In this document: in pieces, positions 5,773-59,806 of the stretch
How positions within the stretch are numbered: position 1 is the stretch's first letter
Layout: every line of letters begins with the position of its first letter
IMG/VR virus record: IMGVR_UViG_3300027715_000010
Location: 30,379-94,378 of that record
Strand: one strand, 5' to 3'
From: a virus
Taxonomy: Duplodnaviria > Caudoviricetes
DNA length: 64,000 nt
Translations under genes and position numbers: made by a program
The notes under the pieces: model-generated
What the model was told of the DNA's origin: nothing
Databases searched by the model: none
Seen by the model: the letters and a program-made list of their open reading frames with translations, nothing else

Positions 5773-6927
5773 TTAATTTATTTCCGAAAGCAAAGGCTGC
5801 ATATCACCTTTTTGTAATATATTAATAGCTGCATTATAATCAGCATCCATTTCCACACCACACGAAGAGCACTTATAGTACTCCCCCTTTCTATTGGTTT
5901 TCATTATAACCCCACAACACGAGCATCTTTGGCTTGTATATGCTGGAGCAACCTTAGTAACCTGGAAACCTTCCATTTCACTAAGGAAACCTAATTTTTC
6001 TAATACTTGTCTATAAGACCAGTATTGCATTTTATTCATAAGATTTGTAGATAACTTAGTATTATTCTTAACTAATTTAAGATCTTCTACATATAATGTA
6101 TGTAATTCTGTATCACTTACTAATTTCTTGCATAATCTATTAATTTCATCTGTTTTATATTTAAGTAGTTTTTCATATCTTCTACTACCTCTTTGCTTCT
6201 TTGCAATTCTATTATAAAGATCTTTTAATTCTTTGCCATAGAATTCACCTTCAGAAGTACTAATTAACTTATTATAACCTATATCAATTCCTATCTTTTT
6301 ACCAGTAGTCTTCTTATCTGGTGTTTTACATTCCCAAAAATAGTTGACATAATACTTACCATTTTTATTTGATAGTCGTACGGTATTCTTTCTTTTACAA
6401 TTATTATACTTTTTCATATAGTTATATAATTGTACAGGAAATTTTATAGATTTAGAATATGGGGTTTTAATAAGAAGAAAATTATTTTGTATATTAAAAA
6501 CTCTAGAATCCAAGCTTATATTGATATTCTTTAGATTTATTTTAATTCTTTTCTTATAGTTTATATTTAATTCTTTAAAGTGTTTTGAGGTAAACTTATA
6601 TTGTCTACCATTTTTTAAGAAGTAACTATATACCTTCTTGTATCTTTTAAAGGTTCTATTCCTAGTATAGTTTATATTAGATCTAACAATTTCAGAAGCT
6701 TGCTTGTATATTATCTGCTTCCAACCAGAATGATGTATAGTATAACCTGGTAGTAAAGGTGAAGATAATAATGATTTTAATGGTATTTTTTCTTCTAATA
6801 TATCTTGGATATACATTCTTAGTTGATTCTCATAGTCAATAAAAATACAATCTAGCATTTCTATTTTACCAGTGTTAGATAACATTAGACTATGTTTAGA
6901 AGTTCTTATATAAATACCGTCAGACAA
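5773..6927 (-). CDS. tnpB: TnpB-family (IS200/IS605-type, Cas12-related) RNA-guided nuclease, no TnpA
   Basis: RuvC I GIDIG, RuvC II VEDL, zinc finger CSCCG...CSSCG, RuvC III DADYNAAINI; PAYTSQRC motif. Confidence 0.93.
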   Translation of the reverse strand: MSDGIYIRTSKHSLMLSNTGKIEMLDCIFIDYENQLRMYIQDILEEKIPLKSLLSSPLLPGYTIHHSGWKQIIYKQASEIVRSNINYTRNRTFKRYKKVYSYFLKNGRQYKFTSKHFKELNINYKKRIKINLKNINISLDSRVFNIQNNFLLIKTPYSKSIKFPVQLYNYMKKYNNCKRKNTVRLSNKNGKYYVNYFWECKTPDKKTTGKKIGIDIGYNKLISTSEGEFYGKELKDLYNRIAKKQRGSRRYEKLLKYKTDEINRLCKKLVSDTELHTLYVEDLKLVKNNTKLSTNLMNKMQYWSYRQVLEKLGFLSEMEGFQVTKVAPAYTSQRCSCCGVIMKTNRKGEYYKCSSCGVEMDADYNAAINILQKGDMQPLLSEIN

Positions 6928-6956
6928 ATCAATAGTTCCTTTATTGGTGTTGTTTA

Positions 6957-6989
6957 GAGGGTATAGATTCGTCCAGAATCTTTATCCTC
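6957..6989. repeat. Imperfect inverted repeat upstream of tnpB (candidate left-end hairpin)
   Basis: GAGGGTATAGATTC-GTCCA-GAATCTTTATCCTC. Confidence 0.45.
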
Positions 6990-6995
6990 GTATAG

Positions 6996-7003
6996 TATTT
7001 ATA
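6996..7003 (-). promoter_or_regulatory. Late promoter TATAAATA upstream of tnpB
   Basis: Exact consensus about 70 nt before the tnpB start. Confidence 0.7.
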
Positions 7004-7039
7004 ATATCTAAAAAATCACAATATCCCAAGTTTATAAAG

Positions 7040-7111
7040 TCGGTGGCCAAGTAAACGGAGGGGAAGACCTAGCCACCGTAGAATATAGCACCGGAGGAGA
7101 AAAGTGCTATA
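7040..7111 (-). ncRNA. Candidate two-hairpin small RNA with CCUCCG loops
   Basis: TATAGCAC/GTGCTATA stem with loop TTTTCTCCTCCG; 12-bp CGGTGGCTAGGT/ACTTGGCCACCG stem with loop CTTCCCCTCCGTTT; starts right after TATAAATA at 7116-7123; the G-U pairs work only on the minus strand. Confidence 0.6.
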
Positions 7112-7115
7112 ATAC

Positions 7116-7123
7116 TATTTATA
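7116..7123 (-). promoter_or_regulatory. Late promoter TATAAATA overlapping gp17 stop
   Basis: Exact consensus; no ORF follows, only the two hairpins. Confidence 0.7.
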
Positions 7124-51911: not shown

Positions 51912-52559
51912 TCACTTTCTATATAATATATCTGGTCCTATTTTTGGAAAGCAATCTAAAGCACTTTCTGGATTGCAGTTATAAACTTTAATGCCTGCTT
52001 TTTCTAATGGTTCTACTGTGGTTCTAAACTTTCTTAACCAGCGTTCTATCTGCACATCCATTGCCGATTTTTCACAAGGTGCTTCATTATGCCACTCGGA
52101 TTCGTTATTCTTACCGGTACTCATATCATATCCAAGTAAGTAAATCTCTTTTGCACCTAATCTAGCAGCGACATTAATTGCTTGGTGACCGGAGTTATTA
52201 CCACAGATATAATCTTCGTGTGCTGGATCCATATCTATTCCTTCGTCACGAGTTAAGTTCATATAGTACTTTACCCCAGCTTTATCCCAATATCCATAAG
52301 CAATATGCATATCTTCCCAGTCTAAATGACCAGTAGAACTAAGTGTAGTATTTTCTAATTTTACAAGATCTCTTGCTGCCATAATGTAAAACGGAAGATC
52401 TGAGAAGTGTATATGGTCACAGTGCATTAGTTTATATGCAAAGTTCAATCCCATTATAAAATACTTATCAGTATCTATTTTACTAACATCAATTTCTTTT
52501 AATGACGGACCACCACCAATTATAATAACTGGTTTGGTTATTTGTGGAAGATTTATCAT
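51912..52559 (-). CDS. MptE/Maf-like (DUF115, sialyltransferase-like fold) protein
   Basis: IIIGGGPSL, GNNSGHQAIN, GAKEIYLLGYDM, VYNCNPESAL. Confidence 0.75.
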   Translation of the reverse strand: MINLPQITKPVIIIGGGPSLKEIDVSKIDTDKYFIMGLNFAYKLMHCDHIHFSDLPFYIMAARDLVKLENTTLSSTGHLDWEDMHIAYGYWDKAGVKYYMNLTRDEGIDMDPAHEDYICGNNSGHQAINVAARLGAKEIYLLGYDMSTGKNNESEWHNEAPCEKSAMDVQIERWLRKFRTTVEPLEKAGIKVYNCNPESALDCFPKIGPDILYRK

Positions 52560-52816
52560 ACATCAAACCTAAATGTTGTTGGTTTCTTTAATAGTCTTAA
52601 ATCAATAGCTTCAGATTCTAGTTTACTCTTAATACCATCTGATAAGTTATCTTTAAGTACTTCAAGATCCATATTGTTTTCTTGAGCATAGATTAGTACA
52701 GCTTCTATATAAGTTGTGTGTTTTTTATTGATAATTTCCATAATATCGTCTGTGGACTTATCTATTACCTGTCTGGTAATAAAATCAGCATCGTTTATAT
52801 CAAGCATTATCTTCAC
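52556..52816 (-). CDS. gp33: Late transcription coactivator gp33
   Basis: TYIEAVLIYAQEN...IKSKLESEAIDLRLLK; near gp59. Confidence 0.85.
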   Translation of the reverse strand: MKIMLDINDADFITRQVIDKSTDDIMEIINKKHTTYIEAVLIYAQENNMDLEVLKDNLSDGIKSKLESEAIDLRLLKKPTTFRFDV

Positions 52817-53753
52817 TCTCCAACTGTGTTGAAACTTGTTCTATTGTTTTAAGAACTGTATCTATACTTACATTTTTATTTATAAATGTAATTCCACAAG
52901 CTTCACTGTGTCCACCACTGGATTGAATAATATCTGGATACGTTGCCTTTAAGTATTCAATACGTTTACCCAAGTTTACTTTTTCTTGTCTGCTTCTAAT
53001 AGAGATGCTATAATACTCACCAGTTGGCCTATTTACAAAATAATAATATCTATAACCTTGCTTATAATACGGCACATAATTCATAATAGGTATTTCTACG
53101 TTATCAGATATTGAAATAAGTCCAGTTTTACCTACATCTGCGTATTCTGTTTGTTTTTCAATACAATGCTTAACTTTGATGCTGTAATCAATGATATAAT
53201 CTTGTTCGTCAACATTAAAACCATTAAATCCATTTGAGAATCTTTTCATAAAGTCTCTTGAGTGATACTTCCAGAATAATGTGTTTAGTCCGTCAGCGTT
53301 TTCCCAATCTTCACTATCATCTTTTTTCCATAGGTCAAAGATATTGGTATACTTAACTAGAGACTCATATTTTATAAGACTTGGAAAAGTATCTATATGG
53401 TCATCATAGAAAATCTTAGCACCACATTTATCTTTATTCCAGCTCATAAAGAACTTTTGTGTCTTTGCGGTTAAGTATTTTTTATAGAAATCTTCTGAAT
53501 TCTGATGATGGTCATATAAGTAAATCTTATCAAACACTTTAAAGATCTTAATAAGCTGGTCTTTACTAAGGCAAAGATCTGTAATTACGATCTCGGTCTC
53601 TTTTGTTTTTAGTGTACAAAATTGTTCTATAACACCATCTAGTTTGACAAGACCCATAGCTTTTGACATATCAAATCTACCGTAAACTTCAGTAGCTAGC
53701 ATTTGACACACGATACCGTCTAGGTCATAGTGTGTTAGTAAATACTTTTGCAT
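52800..53753 (-). CDS. DHH/DHHA1-family phosphoesterase (NrnA-like)
   Basis: THYDLDG, TDL, YDHH, ISIRS, SGGHSEACG. Confidence 0.88.
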   Translation of the reverse strand: MQKYLLTHYDLDGIVCQMLATEVYGRFDMSKAMGLVKLDGVIEQFCTLKTKETEIVITDLCLSKDQLIKIFKVFDKIYLYDHHQNSEDFYKKYLTAKTQKFFMSWNKDKCGAKIFYDDHIDTFPSLIKYESLVKYTNIFDLWKKDDSEDWENADGLNTLFWKYHSRDFMKRFSNGFNGFNVDEQDYIIDYSIKVKHCIEKQTEYADVGKTGLISISDNVEIPIMNYVPYYKQGYRYYYFVNRPTGEYYSISIRSRQEKVNLGKRIEYLKATYPDIIQSSGGHSEACGITFINKNVSIDTVLKTIEQVSTQLESEDNA

Positions 53754-53764
53754 AATATAACTTT

Positions 53765-54403
53765 CTATATAAGTGTTTCTAAGTCCCTATACTCAAAACA
53801 AGTTAAGGCACTGTCTCGGTTGCAGTTATAAACTTGTATTCCTAGATTGTCAATATCTTTTTTCGTATTTATCCAATTTGGTATCATTACCTGTGAATAA
53901 CGAACTGGATTAGTAAAACGTTTATGCTCATCGTGCCAGTTATTATGACCATTGGTTGGTTTCATATCAAAACCAACTAAAGCAATCTTCTTATATCCCA
54001 TTTTTATAAGTACATTAAGTGCTTGAAGACCAGCATTATCTCCACCAACTCTATTTGTTTCCATATAAAGACCATAAGCACCAGCTTTATGTTGATATTC
54101 AATACCACCAGAATTCCTCCACATTTCAACATTATAAGGAACTCCGATATTACCGTTATAAGGTGCAGAGCAAGTCCAGTAATTTTCTAAAACGTGGTCT
54201 TTAAACTTTGGATTTTCATAATGCCAAGTCCACCAGACAAAGTCCGAGAAGTGGCTAAGCACCGTCTTCTTGAATAGTTTATAAGCATTATTGGTTGTGG
54301 CAATATCCTTATCCATTAATAAGTTAAGATTAACTGTTGATAAACTTGGACCACCACCAATTAAATATACTATGTCCTCCATTATTCCCCCGTTATCTAT
54401 CAA
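53765..54403 (-). CDS. Second MptE/Maf-like protein
   Basis: YLIGGGPSL, GGDNAGLQALN, GYKKIALVGFDM, VYNCNRDSAL; start may be the internal MEDIV. Confidence 0.75.
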   Translation of the reverse strand: MIDNGGIMEDIVYLIGGGPSLSTVNLNLLMDKDIATTNNAYKLFKKTVLSHFSDFVWWTWHYENPKFKDHVLENYWTCSAPYNGNIGVPYNVEMWRNSGGIEYQHKAGAYGLYMETNRVGGDNAGLQALNVLIKMGYKKIALVGFDMKPTNGHNNWHDEHKRFTNPVRYSQVMIPNWINTKKDIDNLGIQVYNCNRDSALTCFEYRDLETLI

Positions 54404-54975: not shown

Positions 54976-55431
54976 CTAAAATAATTCTAGTTTATTGCTT
55001 GAGAATAGTATACTTTCAGATCTTCTACGATTTGTCAAGCCTTTTAATTCTTTACCAGCAGCTTTATTCCATTTAAGAAACTCTGTAGATGCTTGTGTAA
55101 AGTTATTCTTGTTAATACACTTTAATAATGTACTCTTTGAAAAATTGGTTATTCCGAGGTTATAAACAAAAGAATAGATAGCATCCCACTGGTTTTGTGA
55201 TAAACTAGTTTTTATACAGCTAACTAATTGTTTTTCAATCATATTAACTTCTTCCATTAGATAACCAGATGCTTTCTGCTCTGTAATTACCATACCGGTT
55301 GGAATAGGTTTACCACCGATACGAGTAGTTCCATAACCAATAGTTGGTACTCTTGCTGGACAAAGATAAGTAGAAGGATAGAATCCCTCATAGTGTTTTA
55401 TTAGTTTTAGACCAATATCTGATATTTTCAT
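54976..55431 (-). CDS. Endolysin, GH24 lysozyme
   Basis: LIKHYEG...YLCPARVPTIGYG, QWDAIYSFVYNLG, GLTNRRRSE. Confidence 0.93.
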   Translation of the reverse strand: MKISDIGLKLIKHYEGFYPSTYLCPARVPTIGYGTTRIGGKPIPTGMVITEQKASGYLMEEVNMIEKQLVSCIKTSLSQNQWDAIYSFVYNLGITNFSKSTLLKCINKNNFTQASTEFLKWNKAAGKELKGLTNRRRSESILFSSNKLELF

Positions 55432-55449
55432 CTTTTACCTCTATGCCCG

Positions 55450-55483
55450 TATTTATAATATATATTATCGTTTAGATTGTCAA
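55450..55483 (-). promoter_or_regulatory. Overlapping sigma70-type (TTGACA-N17-TATTAT) and late (TATAAATA, 55450-55457) promoters
   Basis: Both consensus elements read directly upstream of the endolysin. Confidence 0.7.
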
Positions 55484-55604
55484 GCTTAATCTATAATTTA
55501 ATATATATTATCACTGAAACCAAGGGGCTTTCGTCTTAACTATTTGATTTTATTAAAGAAGAATATTTATTTTCGAAAGTACCCCGAAAAAGCACTTCAA
55601 CTTG

Positions 55605-55690
55605 TATAAATACGCTCAAGTATGATTAAAAATAATTGTAAAAAAGACTTGACTTATGATTAAATAGTGATTATATGATATGTATAAATA
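55605..55690 (+). promoter_or_regulatory. Promoter cluster for the large RNA: TATAAATA (55605-55612, 55683-55690) and TTGACT (55649-55654)
   Basis: Two exact late consensus boxes and a -35-like hexamer, all pointing into a non-coding region. Confidence 0.65.
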
Positions 55691-55695
55691 TAAGT

Positions 55696-56335
55696 ATTAA
55701 GTTTTAAGACATACCGGAACCACGAATAAAAAGTCCTTTTCCGGAAAGGCATCCGCAGCAGTAGGAGCAATATGTAGGCACTGCGTACCGTCTAAGGCGG
55801 CGAACGCATAAATAGCTGTCCATAAAGGCCTGGTCGTTGCGGGATACTATAGATTGGTGCGAAAGTACTATTTTTGGGAGTCAGCCCCCAGAAGCATTGG
55901 ACAAACGGTCCAAGTTCTATAGCGCATAGCAAGAATTGAAGAGTTGAAGTCTATGTGAAATCAAAAGTATCTCCATTAGTAGGACTGGTCTTACTGTGGA
56001 TCTAGACTTATGTACATTGGATTCAACATAGGTTTAGTGAAGCGGTAAATGTCAATGGTATTATTCAATAATGTGTCGTAGTTATGTAAAAGTATTTATC
56101 CAAAAGTACTTTACAAAGTCAAAGGGCATTATACCAAGGGGATGGAGATTCCAAAAAAAGATTGTGGCATCTGCAAGGATAGCAACCACATAGGTTATAA
56201 GAATACTCATAATTCTTAAATTTCTTATAACTGACCGAGACTGTTTAGCATATCAAAGGATAAAATATGCTAACTATTTGTATATCAGATAACGGCACAG
56301 AGTTTCACCGTTAAAACAACGAACCTGATAATTTA
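55696..56335 (+). ncRNA. Large structured non-coding RNA, class unassigned (ends approximate)
   Basis: No ORF of 60 aa or more; visibly GC-richer than flanks; more than 12 stems by eye, with GAAA/GCAA tetraloops and G-U pairs on the plus strand; nested multibranch helices. Confidence 0.75.
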
Positions 56336-56339
56336 AGAA

Positions 56340-56814
56340 TAACCGCAACAAAATCAAACAAAAATCATCAATTTTTAAAAAAAAGAATAAAAAATCAAAT
56401 TCTGGGTATTACCAGAATACTATTTGGACTATTAGACGATCAAAGAATTGATCAATGAAGAGAACGAAAAGAGAGAGTGCGAAGCGAAAGAGTGAGAAAC
56501 TGAATCGATCAATAAATGATATATAATATATTCAATAAAATGGCGAAAGCCAAATAGATAATAAATAATATAAACTATATTTGAACAACCATATACAATT
56601 TAAAGATTGGCGAAAGCCAAAGACTTAAATATACAATATAATAAATTAAAATACAATTTAATGAATCAAAATTAATTTGTATTGATAATTTAGATAAAAA
56701 TCAAAAGGCCTGAAATCTATCCTTTTTTTCTCCAAAAAAGTATTCAAAATCGAAAATTCAAATCGACTTATCTTCAATAGAATCTTCAAATGAATATATT
56801 TATCTTCAATGATT
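56340..56814. other. Candidate replication origin / DNA-unwinding region
   Basis: A-rich strand-biased tract; GCGAAGC (56479-56485), TGGCGAAAGCCA (56541-56552), TTGGCGAAAGCCAA (56607-56620), TCTTCAA x3 (56771-56809); near uvsY and the switch in gene orientation. Confidence 0.5.
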
Positions 56815-57285
56815 CTATTCAACAGTTTTTCTTTCAATATAGAACTTATCAGTAAGAGCAAAAGTAGAAGTAAATATGATCGGTTCTTCAGGAGAAAGAG
56901 TCGACGATAGTTTCAATTCAGATAAAGAAGTTGGAAATAGATTAGTAAATGTTATTACAAAGTTAGGATTCTTAGCATTAGTTTCAATAATAAGTTGAGC
57001 ATCAGATCTCATCTGCAATTTATTATTACTTGATACACAGTTTTCCATCCATAGTTTTATACTTTCATAAGTCTTCAAGTCTTCATCTGCAATAAAAGTA
57101 ACTGTCAAGTCCGCTAAGTCAAAGTTATCTCCTGGAGCTTTCATTCCAAATGCTCCAAAGTTCTGTATATCAATTCCAGTTACCTTCAAGGCTGGTAGAG
57201 AGATAGACTGTATCATAAACTTTACTTCAGGAATATGATTAATATGCAGTCTAAATCCATTTGGACTCAAGTAATTCTTATTCAT
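56815..57285 (-). CDS. gp3: Tail tube terminator gp3
   Basis: NYLSPNGF, LP, PGD, LTVTFIADEDL..Y..WM, F.NLFPTSLS. Confidence 0.92.
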   Translation of the reverse strand: MNKNYLSPNGFRLHINHIPEVKFMIQSISLPALKVTGIDIQNFGAFGMKAPGDNFDLADLTVTFIADEDLKTYESIKLWMENCVSSNNKLQMRSDAQLIIETNAKNPNFVITFTNLFPTSLSELKLSSTLSPEEPIIFTSTFALTDKFYIERKTVE

Positions 57286-57363: not shown

Positions 57364-57804
57364 ATGGCTTTAGAATCAATGAAATTAGAAGATATTCAGA
57401 GTTTAGCAGAGAAAGAACTTAGAATATCAGAAGACCTAGGATTGGAGTCCAAGAAAAACACGGATCTCTTTCTTAAGTTTCTAAAAATACACAGTACAGA
57501 GAAACTAGTTTTGCTTAAAATGCAAAATAGTTATAACAAATTGCTTTTACAGAGAAGACAATACTATCTTGGTCAAGGTTCGGTAGAAGATTACAGAAAA
57601 GAACCACAGGATATCAAAGTCTTAAGACAAGATGCAGATCTTTATCTTAATGCAGATAGTCTGGTATCCAAGGAACAGTTGGCTCTTGGTTTACAGAAAG
57701 AAAAAGTAGAATGTACAGAAGCTATTCTTAAGCATATACAGAACAGAGGTTTTCAGATCTCCAAGATGATTGAATGGCAAAAGTTTACTAATGGAGTTAA
57801 CTAA
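57364..57804 (+). CDS. uvsY: Recombination mediator UvsY
   Basis: YYLG, YLNAD, IQNRGFQISKMIEWQKF. Confidence 0.92.
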   Translation: MALESMKLEDIQSLAEKELRISEDLGLESKKNTDLFLKFLKIHSTEKLVLLKMQNSYNKLLLQRRQYYLGQGSVEDYRKEPQDIKVLRQDADLYLNADSLVSKEQLALGLQKEKVECTEAILKHIQNRGFQISKMIEWQKFTNGVN

Positions 57805-57843: not shown

Positions 57844-59289
57844 TTGATGATAACAGTAACTAAAATAGATGAAGTCTGGGCAAAGTTAGCCATAGAAGAA
57901 CGTTGTGTAATAATGGAAGTATCAGATTACTTTTCATTTTTTACACCAACAGCTAGATGGTCACCTTTATTCAAGAACAAAATCTGGGACGGTAAGATCC
58001 GTCTTTTCAATGCTCAGACAGGTAAACTATACACCGGTCTAATACATCATTTATATGCTTTTGCCAAAGAACACGATTATCCAATTACTTTCAAAGGCTT
58101 TTCTAAACCAGATCCAATCAGTACCGATGACTTCATAAAGAATCTACAACTACAGAAAACTCCATACGATTTTCAATTAGATGCCCTTAATCACGTTGCT
58201 AATAAACATCGTGCAGTTTTGGTATCCCCAACCGGCACCGGTAAGTCATTGATTATATATCTTATAGTTAAGTTATTCAAACTAAAGACACTTATTATAG
58301 TTCCTTCCGTGCAATTAGTATCACAAATGACCAAGGACTTTATAGACTACGATCCTTCCATTGGTAAAGATATACATCAAATCTACTCCGGACAAGAGAA
58401 AGAAACAGATAAATCTATTACAATTAGTACTTATCAATCCTTACTTAGATTACCCAAAGAATACTTTCAAGACTTCCAGGCTGTAGTTTGTGATGAAGCA
58501 CACGGAGCAGATGCCAAGTCCATCAAGAAAATACTTGAGAATCTTGAAGGTGCATATATTCGTGTTGGAACTACTGGTACTTTAAAAGATATAGAAAAAG
58601 GTAATGTACACCAGTTGGTATTAGAAGGACTAATGGGACCGATTAAAGTAGTTACCAAGACCAGAGATGCTATTGACAATAACATACTTTCTAAATTAAA
58701 TATCAATATCTTATTGTTAGAATATCCTGCTAAGGATCGTAAGTTAGTCCAAGATATGGATTATCAAGAAGAGATGACCTATATTTTACAACATCAACAA
58801 AGAAACAAGTTTATTAAAAATCTAGCTTTACAATTACAAGGAAATACTTTATTACTGTTTACTAGAATAGAACACGGTAAGATAATTTATGACTTATTAA
58901 AAGAACATACAGATCGCAAAGTGTTTTATATAGACGGGGGAATAGACGTGGATCCAAGAGAAGAGATTCGTGCTTATATGGAAAAGAATAAAGATGTTAT
59001 ATTGGTTGCTTCTTATGGTACTTTCTCGCAAGGTATCAATATCAAGAATCTACACAATGTTATCTTTGCCTCTTTTTATAAAAGCCGTGTTAAAGTATTA
59101 CAAAGCATCGGACGTGTTTTAAGAAAGTATCAAGACAAGGTAGCAACTTTATATGATATCGCAGACGACTTAGGAACACCGAAACGAAAGAACTTTTCTT
59201 TGAAACACCTTATAGAACGTATTAAAATGTATGCAGAAGAGAAACATAATTATAACATAAAGAAGATTAGAGTGCCAGATAATGAATAA
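57844..59289 (+). CDS. uvsW: DNA helicase UvsW
   Basis: WDGKIRLF, SPTGTGKS, DEAH, GTTGT, QSIGRVLR. Confidence 0.96.
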   Translation: MMITVTKIDEVWAKLAIEERCVIMEVSDYFSFFTPTARWSPLFKNKIWDGKIRLFNAQTGKLYTGLIHHLYAFAKEHDYPITFKGFSKPDPISTDDFIKNLQLQKTPYDFQLDALNHVANKHRAVLVSPTGTGKSLIIYLIVKLFKLKTLIIVPSVQLVSQMTKDFIDYDPSIGKDIHQIYSGQEKETDKSITISTYQSLLRLPKEYFQDFQAVVCDEAHGADAKSIKKILENLEGAYIRVGTTGTLKDIEKGNVHQLVLEGLMGPIKVVTKTRDAIDNNILSKLNINILLLEYPAKDRKLVQDMDYQEEMTYILQHQQRNKFIKNLALQLQGNTLLLFTRIEHGKIIYDLLKEHTDRKVFYIDGGIDVDPREEIRAYMEKNKDVILVASYGTFSQGINIKNLHNVIFASFYKSRVKVLQSIGRVLRKYQDKVATLYDIADDLGTPKRKNFSLKHLIERIKMYAEEKHNYNIKKIRVPDNE

Positions 59290-59806
59290 ACCACCAAAAG
59301 ATACAAGTAGAAATTACCTTGATAAAGAAAAAGTCTACCAACAGTTTGTTATTTACCATAAAAAGATGCTTGAAGCTAAAGAAAAAAATGAAGAACTACC
59401 AAGAGTACCAGAGTCTATTGGTAAGGCTATTCTTCTAATTTGCACCAATCTAGGTAAACTATGGAAGTTTCGTGGATATACTTATAACGAAGATATGATT
59501 GGTTATGCCATAGAACAATGTATCAGATATGTAAATAACTTTGACCCGAACAAATCTAAAGAACCATTTAGTTACTTTACTCAGATTGCCATCTATGCCT
59601 TTATTCGGTATATTCAAAAAGAAAAGAAGCAAAGATATATCCAAGTTGAGTGTATGAAGGATAACGAATTCTTATCCGGTCTAGTAACCATATCAGACCA
59701 CGATGACTATAAAAAGATAAACCTTGATTGTGTTGAGTTTATCAAGAATTATATTGAGACTAATGATAAAAAAGAGGTATCCAATGAAGATAGCAGTTCT
59801 AACTGA
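59282..59806 (+). CDS. gp55: Late sigma factor gp55
   Basis: FRGYTYNEDMI, NFDPNKSKEPFSYFTQI..AFIRYIQKEKKQ. Confidence 0.95.
   Translation: MNKPPKDTSRNYLDKEKVYQQFVIYHKKMLEAKEKNEELPRVPESIGKAILLICTNLGKLWKFRGYTYNEDMIGYAIEQCIRYVNNFDPNKSKEPFSYFTQIAIYAFIRYIQKEKKQRYIQVECMKDNEFLSGLVTISDHDDYKKINLDCVEFIKNYIETNDKKEVSNEDSSSN

Follow-up and report, generated by a model that had tools for sequence, protein, structure and literature searches.

A candidate late-expressed, structured non-coding RNA in the only large gene-free gap of an aquatic T4-like phage genome

Here we describe an interval without genes in the genome of a T4-type phage, which carries a GC-rich island, two late-promoter motifs directed into that island, and a plus strand that folds better than its own shuffles, the minus strand not doing so, and which matches no known RNA family. 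Tentatively, and as a possibility that still falls short of an even chance, we propose a model in which the interval encodes a late, independent, non-coding plus strand transcript of 0.62 to 0.75 kb, with a GC-rich 5' domain whose fold would be under selection. From the features listed above we infer transcription, the ends of the RNA, a stable fold and whatever function the RNA may have. The element is a candidate represented by a single sequence, which comes from a single clonal phage population.

RESULTS

The gene-free gap and its GC-rich island

The phage is a T4-type myovirus with 33% GC that is known from metagenomes only. Its IMG/VR virus record comprises 94,378 bp and is about half complete. 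We analyzed the 64-kb stretch at bases 30379 to 94378 of this record, which is called the window below and to which all coordinates refer unless another numbering is given. The genes around the gap are the following.

52556 to 52816: gp33, a neighbor gene
54976 to 55431, minus strand: endolysin, the gene to the left of the gap
56815 to 57285, minus strand: gp3, tail-completion protein, the gene to the right, whose 3' end adjoins the gap
57364 to 57804, plus strand: UvsY, a neighbor gene
57844 to 59289, plus strand: UvsW, a neighbor gene
59282 to 59806, plus strand: gp55, the late sigma factor, a neighbor gene

DNA polymerase gp43, helicase loader gp59, two MptE/Maf-like transferases and a DHH phosphoesterase are also encoded nearby, with the replication module (gp43, gp59) on one side of the gap and uvsY/uvsW on the other. 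The gene-free interval between the minus strand genes endolysin and gp3 extends from 55432 to 56814, and the scan of the window showed that 55435 to 56657 is free of stop-to-stop frames of at least 60 aa. No other ORF-free gap of at least 350 nt occurs in the 64-kb window or in the whole 94,378-bp record, while 1.34 Mb of other phage loci contained three gaps of at least 300 nt, none of them GC-rich. A preliminary description of this DNA had called it the only large ORF-free gap, which is true of both the window and the record, and had given it a size of 640 nt, which has to be corrected to ~1383 nt.

The GC content reaches 0.48 to 0.51 at 55700 to 55900, so that this 200-nt window shares first place in the genome (mean, 0.33; sd, 0.039). 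The enrichment is limited to about 55700 to 56000, and for this part the earlier statement that the element is GC-richer than its flanks is correct; it does not apply to 56000 to 56335, where the GC content is average (0.34). A GC-rich island in an AT-rich genome is a classic signature for finding structured RNAs. At 700 nt from the GC-richest spot, positions 56498 to 56697 rank second in AT content among the 200-nt windows of the genome (GC, 0.19). The gap also has direct repeats of 36 and 27 nt, and its plus strand is purine-rich, as the sense strands of this phage are, with purine runs that are not unusual in comparison with the rest of the genome.

Several smaller observations were made in the AT-rich parts of the window. 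Weak similarity in reverse orientation (62% over 178 nt; E value of 3e-6 within the genome) links two stretches, at 56521 to 56683 and 6507 to 6682, that are the most AT-rich of the genome. A purine-rich tract at 56460 to 56505 holds one GCGAAGC, which as DNA forms a very stable mini-hairpin, just upstream of two hairpin repeats that are listed below, and a single copy of this motif is within chance. At the gap ends, AT-rich repeat pairs (55452 to 55512 and 56511 to 56581, with spacings of 43 and 42 nt) are mutually inverted; their alignment score was equalled in 7 of 500 shuffles, which is a weak hint of terminal inverted repeats around an element of ~1.1 kb. Since the end repeats align so weakly, a mobile element bounded by such repeats was set aside.

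Orphan late-promoter motifs and transcription signals

The following transcription signals were found in the gap.

55450 to 55483, minus strand: endolysin promoters, consisting of a late motif TATAAATA (55450 to 55457) and a sigma-70-like TTGACA-17-TATTAT; the left limit of the independent unit
55605 to 55612, plus strand: late-promoter motif P1, TATAAATA, T4-type, without a downstream gene (the nearest same-strand gene start is 1752 nt off, past the convergent gp3)
55683 to 55690, plus strand: late-promoter motif P2, TATAAATA, with a predicted start at about 55696
56399 to 56418: hairpin AUUCUGG-N6-CCAGAAU from the terminator scan (-7.5 kcal/mol; z, -2.9), a clear terminator for the minus strand (gp3) transcript
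56540 to 56553 and 56607 to 56620: two copies of a 36-nt repeat, each with a GGCGAAAGCC hairpin that is GNRA-capped on the plus strand and terminator-like on the minus strand

The late motif that the preliminary description had placed just before the element, at 55683 to 55690, is present, and it is accompanied by the second plus strand copy at 55605 to 55612. The window contains 24 TATAAATA sites versus 15.8 expected from shuffling (1.5-fold), and 12 of them are intergenic. Ten of these 12 are located 19 to 86 nt upstream of a same-strand gene start, including those of endolysin (55450, minus strand) and gp3 (57336, minus strand); the only orphan intergenic sites are the two plus strand copies in the gap, and both point into the GC island. 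When the gap was dinucleotide-shuffled, 5% of the shuffles had at least two plus strand motifs; for its AT-rich 5' flank (55458 to 55700) the share was 1.5%. An extended late-promoter consensus is not visible at the motifs of this phage and therefore gave no means of grading the orphan copies. The phage encodes both gp55 and gp33, the machinery that reads TATAAATA, so that at the level of the motif the gap appears to hold a T4-type late transcription unit, defined by TATAAATA at -10 in a phage that possesses these two proteins. Sigma-70-like matches were no commoner than in shuffles.

Tandem late motifs do occur before a real gene in this genome, at 6996 and 7116. These two minus strand copies, 120 nt apart, belong to an intergenic region of 191 nt (window 6928 to 7123; GC, 0.37), and between them lie two stable hairpins, with a minus strand fold of -28.9 kcal/mol (z, -2.75). 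Lying upstream of the minus strand gene at 5773 to 6927, this region probably represents either a small late RNA or a structured 5' leader.

Three minus strand terminator-like hairpins lie 3' of gp3 (56620 to 56607, 56553 to 56540 and 56418 to 56399). Because these terminators follow gp3 and endolysin has promoters of its own, the region from 55600 to 56400 is bracketed as a separate unit, the sole recognizable promoters of which point rightwards. For a plus strand RNA, the hairpin at 56399 to 56418 may act as a weak bidirectional stop; its plus side has just ACUAUUU and lacks a good U-tract. A convincing plus strand terminator was not found in the gap, where the hairpin at 56706 to 56730 was no better than shuffles, and no terminator marks position 56335, the 3' end given in the preliminary description.

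The same signals could be read as all that the gap contains. On the right it would then consist of the 3' untranslated region of gp3 with its terminator array and on the left of the endolysin promoter region, and any late transcription of the plus strand would be antisense or read-through towards gp3 and uvsY and not a structured RNA. The three hairpins after gp3 and the endolysin promoters at 55450 to 55483 fit this explanation, and a plus strand transcript that meets no strong terminator before gp3 could indeed run antisense into it. However, these signals cover at most about 500 of the ~1383 nt and leave 55700 to 56320, with the GC island, unexplained, and the other gene boundaries of this genome take only 70 to 250 nt. 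We regard boundary signals alone as an unlikely explanation.

The right part of the gap recalls a replication origin. T4 has an origin at uvsY, the R-loops of which are unwound by UvsW, and the ColE1 RNA II, of about 550 nt, decides by its fold whether a hybrid forms. By analogy, a transcript from the left of the gap would enter the AT-rich, repeat-bearing segment at 56440 to 56700 and prime synthesis from a persistent RNA-DNA hybrid, with the structured 5' part controlling hybrid formation as at T4 ori(uvsY) or in ColE1 RNA II. The gap shares with both systems a long putative purine-rich transcript that runs into an AT-rich segment, and with T4 ori(uvsY) the vicinity of uvsY and uvsW beside replication genes; the two GGCGAAAGCC hairpin repeats fall inside the AT-rich window at 56498 to 56697, and the direct repeats of 36 and 27 nt, the single GCGAAGC and the purine-rich plus strand point the same way. 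An AT-rich element is present, but the only recognizable promoters are late-type, not early or middle as in those systems, and sigma-70-like matches do not exceed shuffles. Late transcription requires that replication is already under way; T4 origins, by contrast, use middle promoters and fire early. Moreover, no hybrid-forming G-run/C-run pair was identified in the gap, there is no sequence similarity to ColE1 RNA II or T4 ori(uvsY), the purine runs are ordinary for this genome, and one GCGAAGC is within chance. To our knowledge, related Kyanoviridae offer no defined origin for comparison. An origin seems quite unlikely to us, slightly more so than boundary signals alone.

Predicted fold of the plus strand

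Returning to the proposed transcript, folding of the plus strand predicted two closed domains and a tail.

55705 to 56056, plus strand: predicted domain A, closed by GACA-UACCG/CGGUA-UGUC, with maximum expected accuracy (MEA) helices of pair probability 0.84 to 0.98 and a GC content of 0.44 to 0.51; it contains the GC-rich core (55750 to 55975, two multibranch sub-domains) and two 3' hairpins
56054 to 56317, plus strand: predicted domain B, closed by AAUGGU/ACCGUU and UGUGUCGU/ACGGCACA, with five hairpins and average GC content
56318 to 56398, plus strand: A-rich unstructured tail or linker, with an AT skew of +0.28 to +0.40

All stems listed in the preliminary description were found in the sequence, and most of them are part of the MEA structure with pair probabilities of 0.84 to 0.99. 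The long-range helix CCGCAGC/GUUGCGG is predicted with a probability of 0.98, and GAUACU/AGUAUC is weaker (0.55). The plus strand of 55696 to 56335 has a minimum free energy of -168.7 kcal/mol (z, -3.5), which none of 60 dinucleotide shuffles equalled, versus a z of -1.3 for the minus strand. For domain A the z values are -3.8 on the plus strand and -1.8 on the minus strand, and for domain B they are -4.1 and -1.3, values that are somewhat flattering since the domain boundaries were picked from the fold itself. For the element and its domains together, z values run from -3.5 to -4.1 on the plus strand and from -1.1 to -1.8 on the minus strand. Positional entropy of the plus strand, calculated within the domain limits, was below that of all 60 shuffles. 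The folding energy is thus better than that of shuffled controls, which had been named as a result that would speak against the RNA if it failed, and the earlier assignment to the plus strand agrees with these values, folding of the minus strand being not significant.

By comparing the candidate with other parts of the same genome, we found that this signal is modest. Among 30 other windows of 640 nt (mean z, -0.8), the candidate ranks second, since a coding window at 53323 to 53962 (minus strand) reached a z of -4.2 on re-test with 40 shuffles and beats the -3.5 of the candidate. For 56 windows of 345 nt the mean z was -0.68, with an sd of 1.13, and four of them scored at least as well as the core (-2.7). 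Because one of the 30 background windows, and a coding one, scored -4.2, the energy signal is suggestive at most: it is strand-specific and belongs to about the top 5% of the genome. The wording "highly structured" in the preliminary description was therefore too strong, since the z value does not go beyond that of a coding window from this genome. That coding window spans the DHH phosphoesterase and the start of a transferase gene and may represent a structured mRNA segment or chance.

Search for known RNA families and coding potential

We searched the 64-kb window with all 4227 families of Rfam 15 by cmscan and obtained no match at the gathering score. When 1.7 kb and, with the laxest filters, two stretches of ~380 nt from the gap region were searched at E values of up to 10, only chance-level matches appeared (snoRNAs, Flavo-1, Yfr10, atoC and STnc40, with E values of 2.9 to 9.7). 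The blank result at the gathering score in the whole window and at E values of up to 10 in the gap stretches bears out the earlier remark that the element could not be matched to ROOL, GOLLD, RNase P, tmRNA or group I/II cores. ARAGORN and the Rfam models detected no tRNA or tmRNA in the 64-kb window, and no second copy of the core, such as an internal duplication or a template of the kind found in diversity-generating retroelements, exists in the genome. We found no description of a comparable element in the literature.

Individual families were considered and rejected as follows. The ROOL covariance model had no match at the gathering score or at E values of up to 10; the GOLLD model had no match either, and the 64-kb window lacks tRNA genes. 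For group I and group II introns the Rfam models gave no match, and neither strand has open frames flanking the element. The conserved cores of RNase P RNA, tmRNA and tRNA were not detected by the Rfam models and ARAGORN.

A highly diverged member of a known family, for example a group I or group II intron remnant, an RNase P-like RNA or a ROOL/GOLLD-like RNA, might still have been missed by these models. The similar size and the predicted GNRA loops and multibranch domains would suit such an RNA. On the other side stand the chance-level matches from 4227 families, even with ~380-nt stretches and the laxest filters, together with the absence of exons alongside that could be spliced and of tRNAs nearby, which often accompany ROOL and GOLLD. 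This explanation is in our view very unlikely.

Still less probable, to the point that we give it hardly any weight, is an unrecognised protein-coding gene, which would have to be recoded, frameshifted or very small. All three minus strand frames are open for 49 to 58 codons across the GC island. However, the longest stop-to-stop frame in the gap has 58 aa, the stop-to-stop frames of the gap gave nothing beyond noise against Pfam and PHROGs, and the first plus strand ATGs past the promoters run straight into stops. Copies of the phage are present in at least three assemblies (IMG/VR, ENA ERZ27245805 and Logan SRR5693545), and over 2310 bp the ENA and Logan copies are identical to the present sequence except for one single-nucleotide polymorphism, at 56590, outside the core. 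Because three independent assemblies give the same sequence, the in-frame stops, identical in all three, are not sequencing errors.

A singleton lineage and a rearrangement junction

We looked for relatives of the element at several levels. A blastn search with "distant" settings of 50,697 INPHARED phage records returned no match to the gap, nhmmer and sensitive blastn searches of 140 loci around endolysin and UvsW relatives gave nothing credible, and BLAST against five whole related virus records yielded only chance matches of 14 to 25 nt. A single-sequence covariance model of 55750 to 55975 with 73 pairs, searched against 1.4 Mb of loci and against P-SSM2, Pelagibacter phage Mosig and three more records, matched itself alone. 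Exact 18- to 20-mers of the core were absent from viral contigs and, in two scans, from metagenome contigs; one 18-mer had 19 matches in prokaryote (GTDB) genomes, versus ~17 estimated by chance, and none of them extended beyond 18 to 22 nt.

The phage itself is similarly isolated. Its gp3 has no relative but itself among 5.8 billion proteins, and the relatives of its UvsW are at most 50% identical. Since UvsW is 45 to 46% identical to those of Prochlorococcus phage P-SSM2 and Pelagibacter phage Mosig, the phage is placed in an aquatic, Kyanoviridae-like branch of the T4-like phages, far from any cultured member, and appears there as a singleton lineage.

In P-SSM2, Mosig and the two closest metagenomic relatives examined, the genes gp21-gp22-gp23-gp3-uvsY-uvsW-gp55-gp47-gp46 follow one another on one strand and are tightly packed, with at most one to three small genes between them and no gene-free gap. 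Here, gp23 (genome C1:27592-28755) is 58 kb from gp3, and gp3 is inverted, so that the T4-like structural module has been rearranged in this lineage. Because the relatives are contiguous and gp3 is inverted and 58 kb from gp23 in this phage, the gap is, as judged by gene order, a lineage-specific rearrangement junction and not a conserved gap of the T4 core. The preliminary description had spoken of an RNA embedded in the T4-like core genome, which does not hold in a syntenic sense, the nearest relatives being contiguous and gap-free; the syntenic endolysin-gp3 gaps that it proposed to collect are likewise absent from the relatives examined. The junction cuts both ways, since an acquired element could naturally settle there and junk could also persist.

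This gene order is an argument for regarding the gap as a rearrangement scar or decaying foreign DNA, that is, a non-functional remnant of the broken gp23-gp3 adjacency and the inversion of gp3. The GC island would be a remnant of acquired DNA, and motifs and folds would be chance features of AT-rich sequence. Besides the contrast with the relatives, the collections searched yielded neither a homolog nor any sign of conservation, the fold z is inside the background range, and weak AT-rich inverted repeats bracket the gap. Nevertheless, phage genomes quickly shed useless DNA, yet this is the sole such gap in 94 kb; the GC island bears no trace of a protein frame, and decay in a genome of 33% GC should not leave behind its GC-richest spot. 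Strand-specific folding and two correctly oriented orphan late motifs would also both have to be coincidence. A scar is a serious alternative, although we think it somewhat unlikely.

DISCUSSION

According to the model that we tentatively prefer, RNA polymerase directed by gp55 and gp33 would use either or both of the TATAAATA motifs, with starts at about 55618 and 55696, and produce a transcript of 0.62 to 0.75 kb that possibly ends near the hairpin at 56399 to 56418. Two closed multi-helix domains would form in this RNA, and the likely functional core is the GC-rich 5' one (55750 to 55975). Insulation from the minus strand genes would be provided on the right by the three terminator-like hairpins that gp3 transcripts meet and on the left by the promoters that endolysin has of its own. 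As a working guess drawn from ROOL and GOLLD, the product may be a stable late RNA whose fold serves as a scaffold or as a decoy for a host or phage protein; fold-based action of this kind is suspected for other large phage-borne RNAs.

ROOL and GOLLD are reportedly large, ornate RNAs that are often carried by phages or prophages, and cryo-EM work on them is said to exist. The element resembles them in a length of several hundred nucleotides, its non-coding nature, a multi-domain fold (predicted here), its carriage by a phage and an unknown function, and a late or lytic expression pattern would be plausible for it as well. Unlike them, it matches no Rfam model and has no neighboring tRNAs, and it has no homologs, whereas the ROOL and GOLLD families rest on hundreds of covarying ones. 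The carrier also differs, being an aquatic T4-like phage here and Lactobacillales or rumen phages in the case of ROOL and GOLLD.

Other structured RNAs of T4-like phages offer further comparisons. The T4 stable RNAs C and D and the phage tRNA clusters stand out from an AT-rich T4-type genome as structured, non-coding islands of higher GC content. The element is likewise a GC-richer non-coding island in such a genome, but ARAGORN and the Rfam tRNA model are blank for it, and its size and predicted architecture are different. In T4-like cyanophages, the reported non-coding RNAs are CfrI, PhotoRC-II, wcaG, manA, the glnA riboswitch and abiF (PMC9964418). They share the broad, Kyanoviridae-like phage group with the element; however, they are 40 to 225 nt in length and mostly cis-regulatory leaders of metabolic genes or antisense RNAs, whereas the element is 3 to 10 times larger and has no downstream gene. 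The Rfam models of wcaG, manA, glnA, abiF and PhotoRC-II had no match in the 64-kb window.

Going one step further, the element might be the founding example of a new class of late-expressed structured RNAs of aquatic T4-like phages, large in size (about 0.6 to 0.75 kb) and unrelated to Rfam families. We consider this broader proposal rather unlikely, though not negligible. Such an RNA would have been acquired at the rearrangement junction and could serve as a scaffold, as a decoy against host defence, or as a self-assembling RNA like ROOL and GOLLD.

Large structured RNAs with no assigned function are rare, and phages carry several of those described, ROOL and GOLLD among them. The main present value of the element is that of a pointer. 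If the proposed reading is true, T4-type late promoters would place an RNA of this kind at a defined stage of infection, within the phage transcription system that is understood best, and deep-branching aquatic myoviruses would carry RNA elements that are invisible to sequence-family searches.
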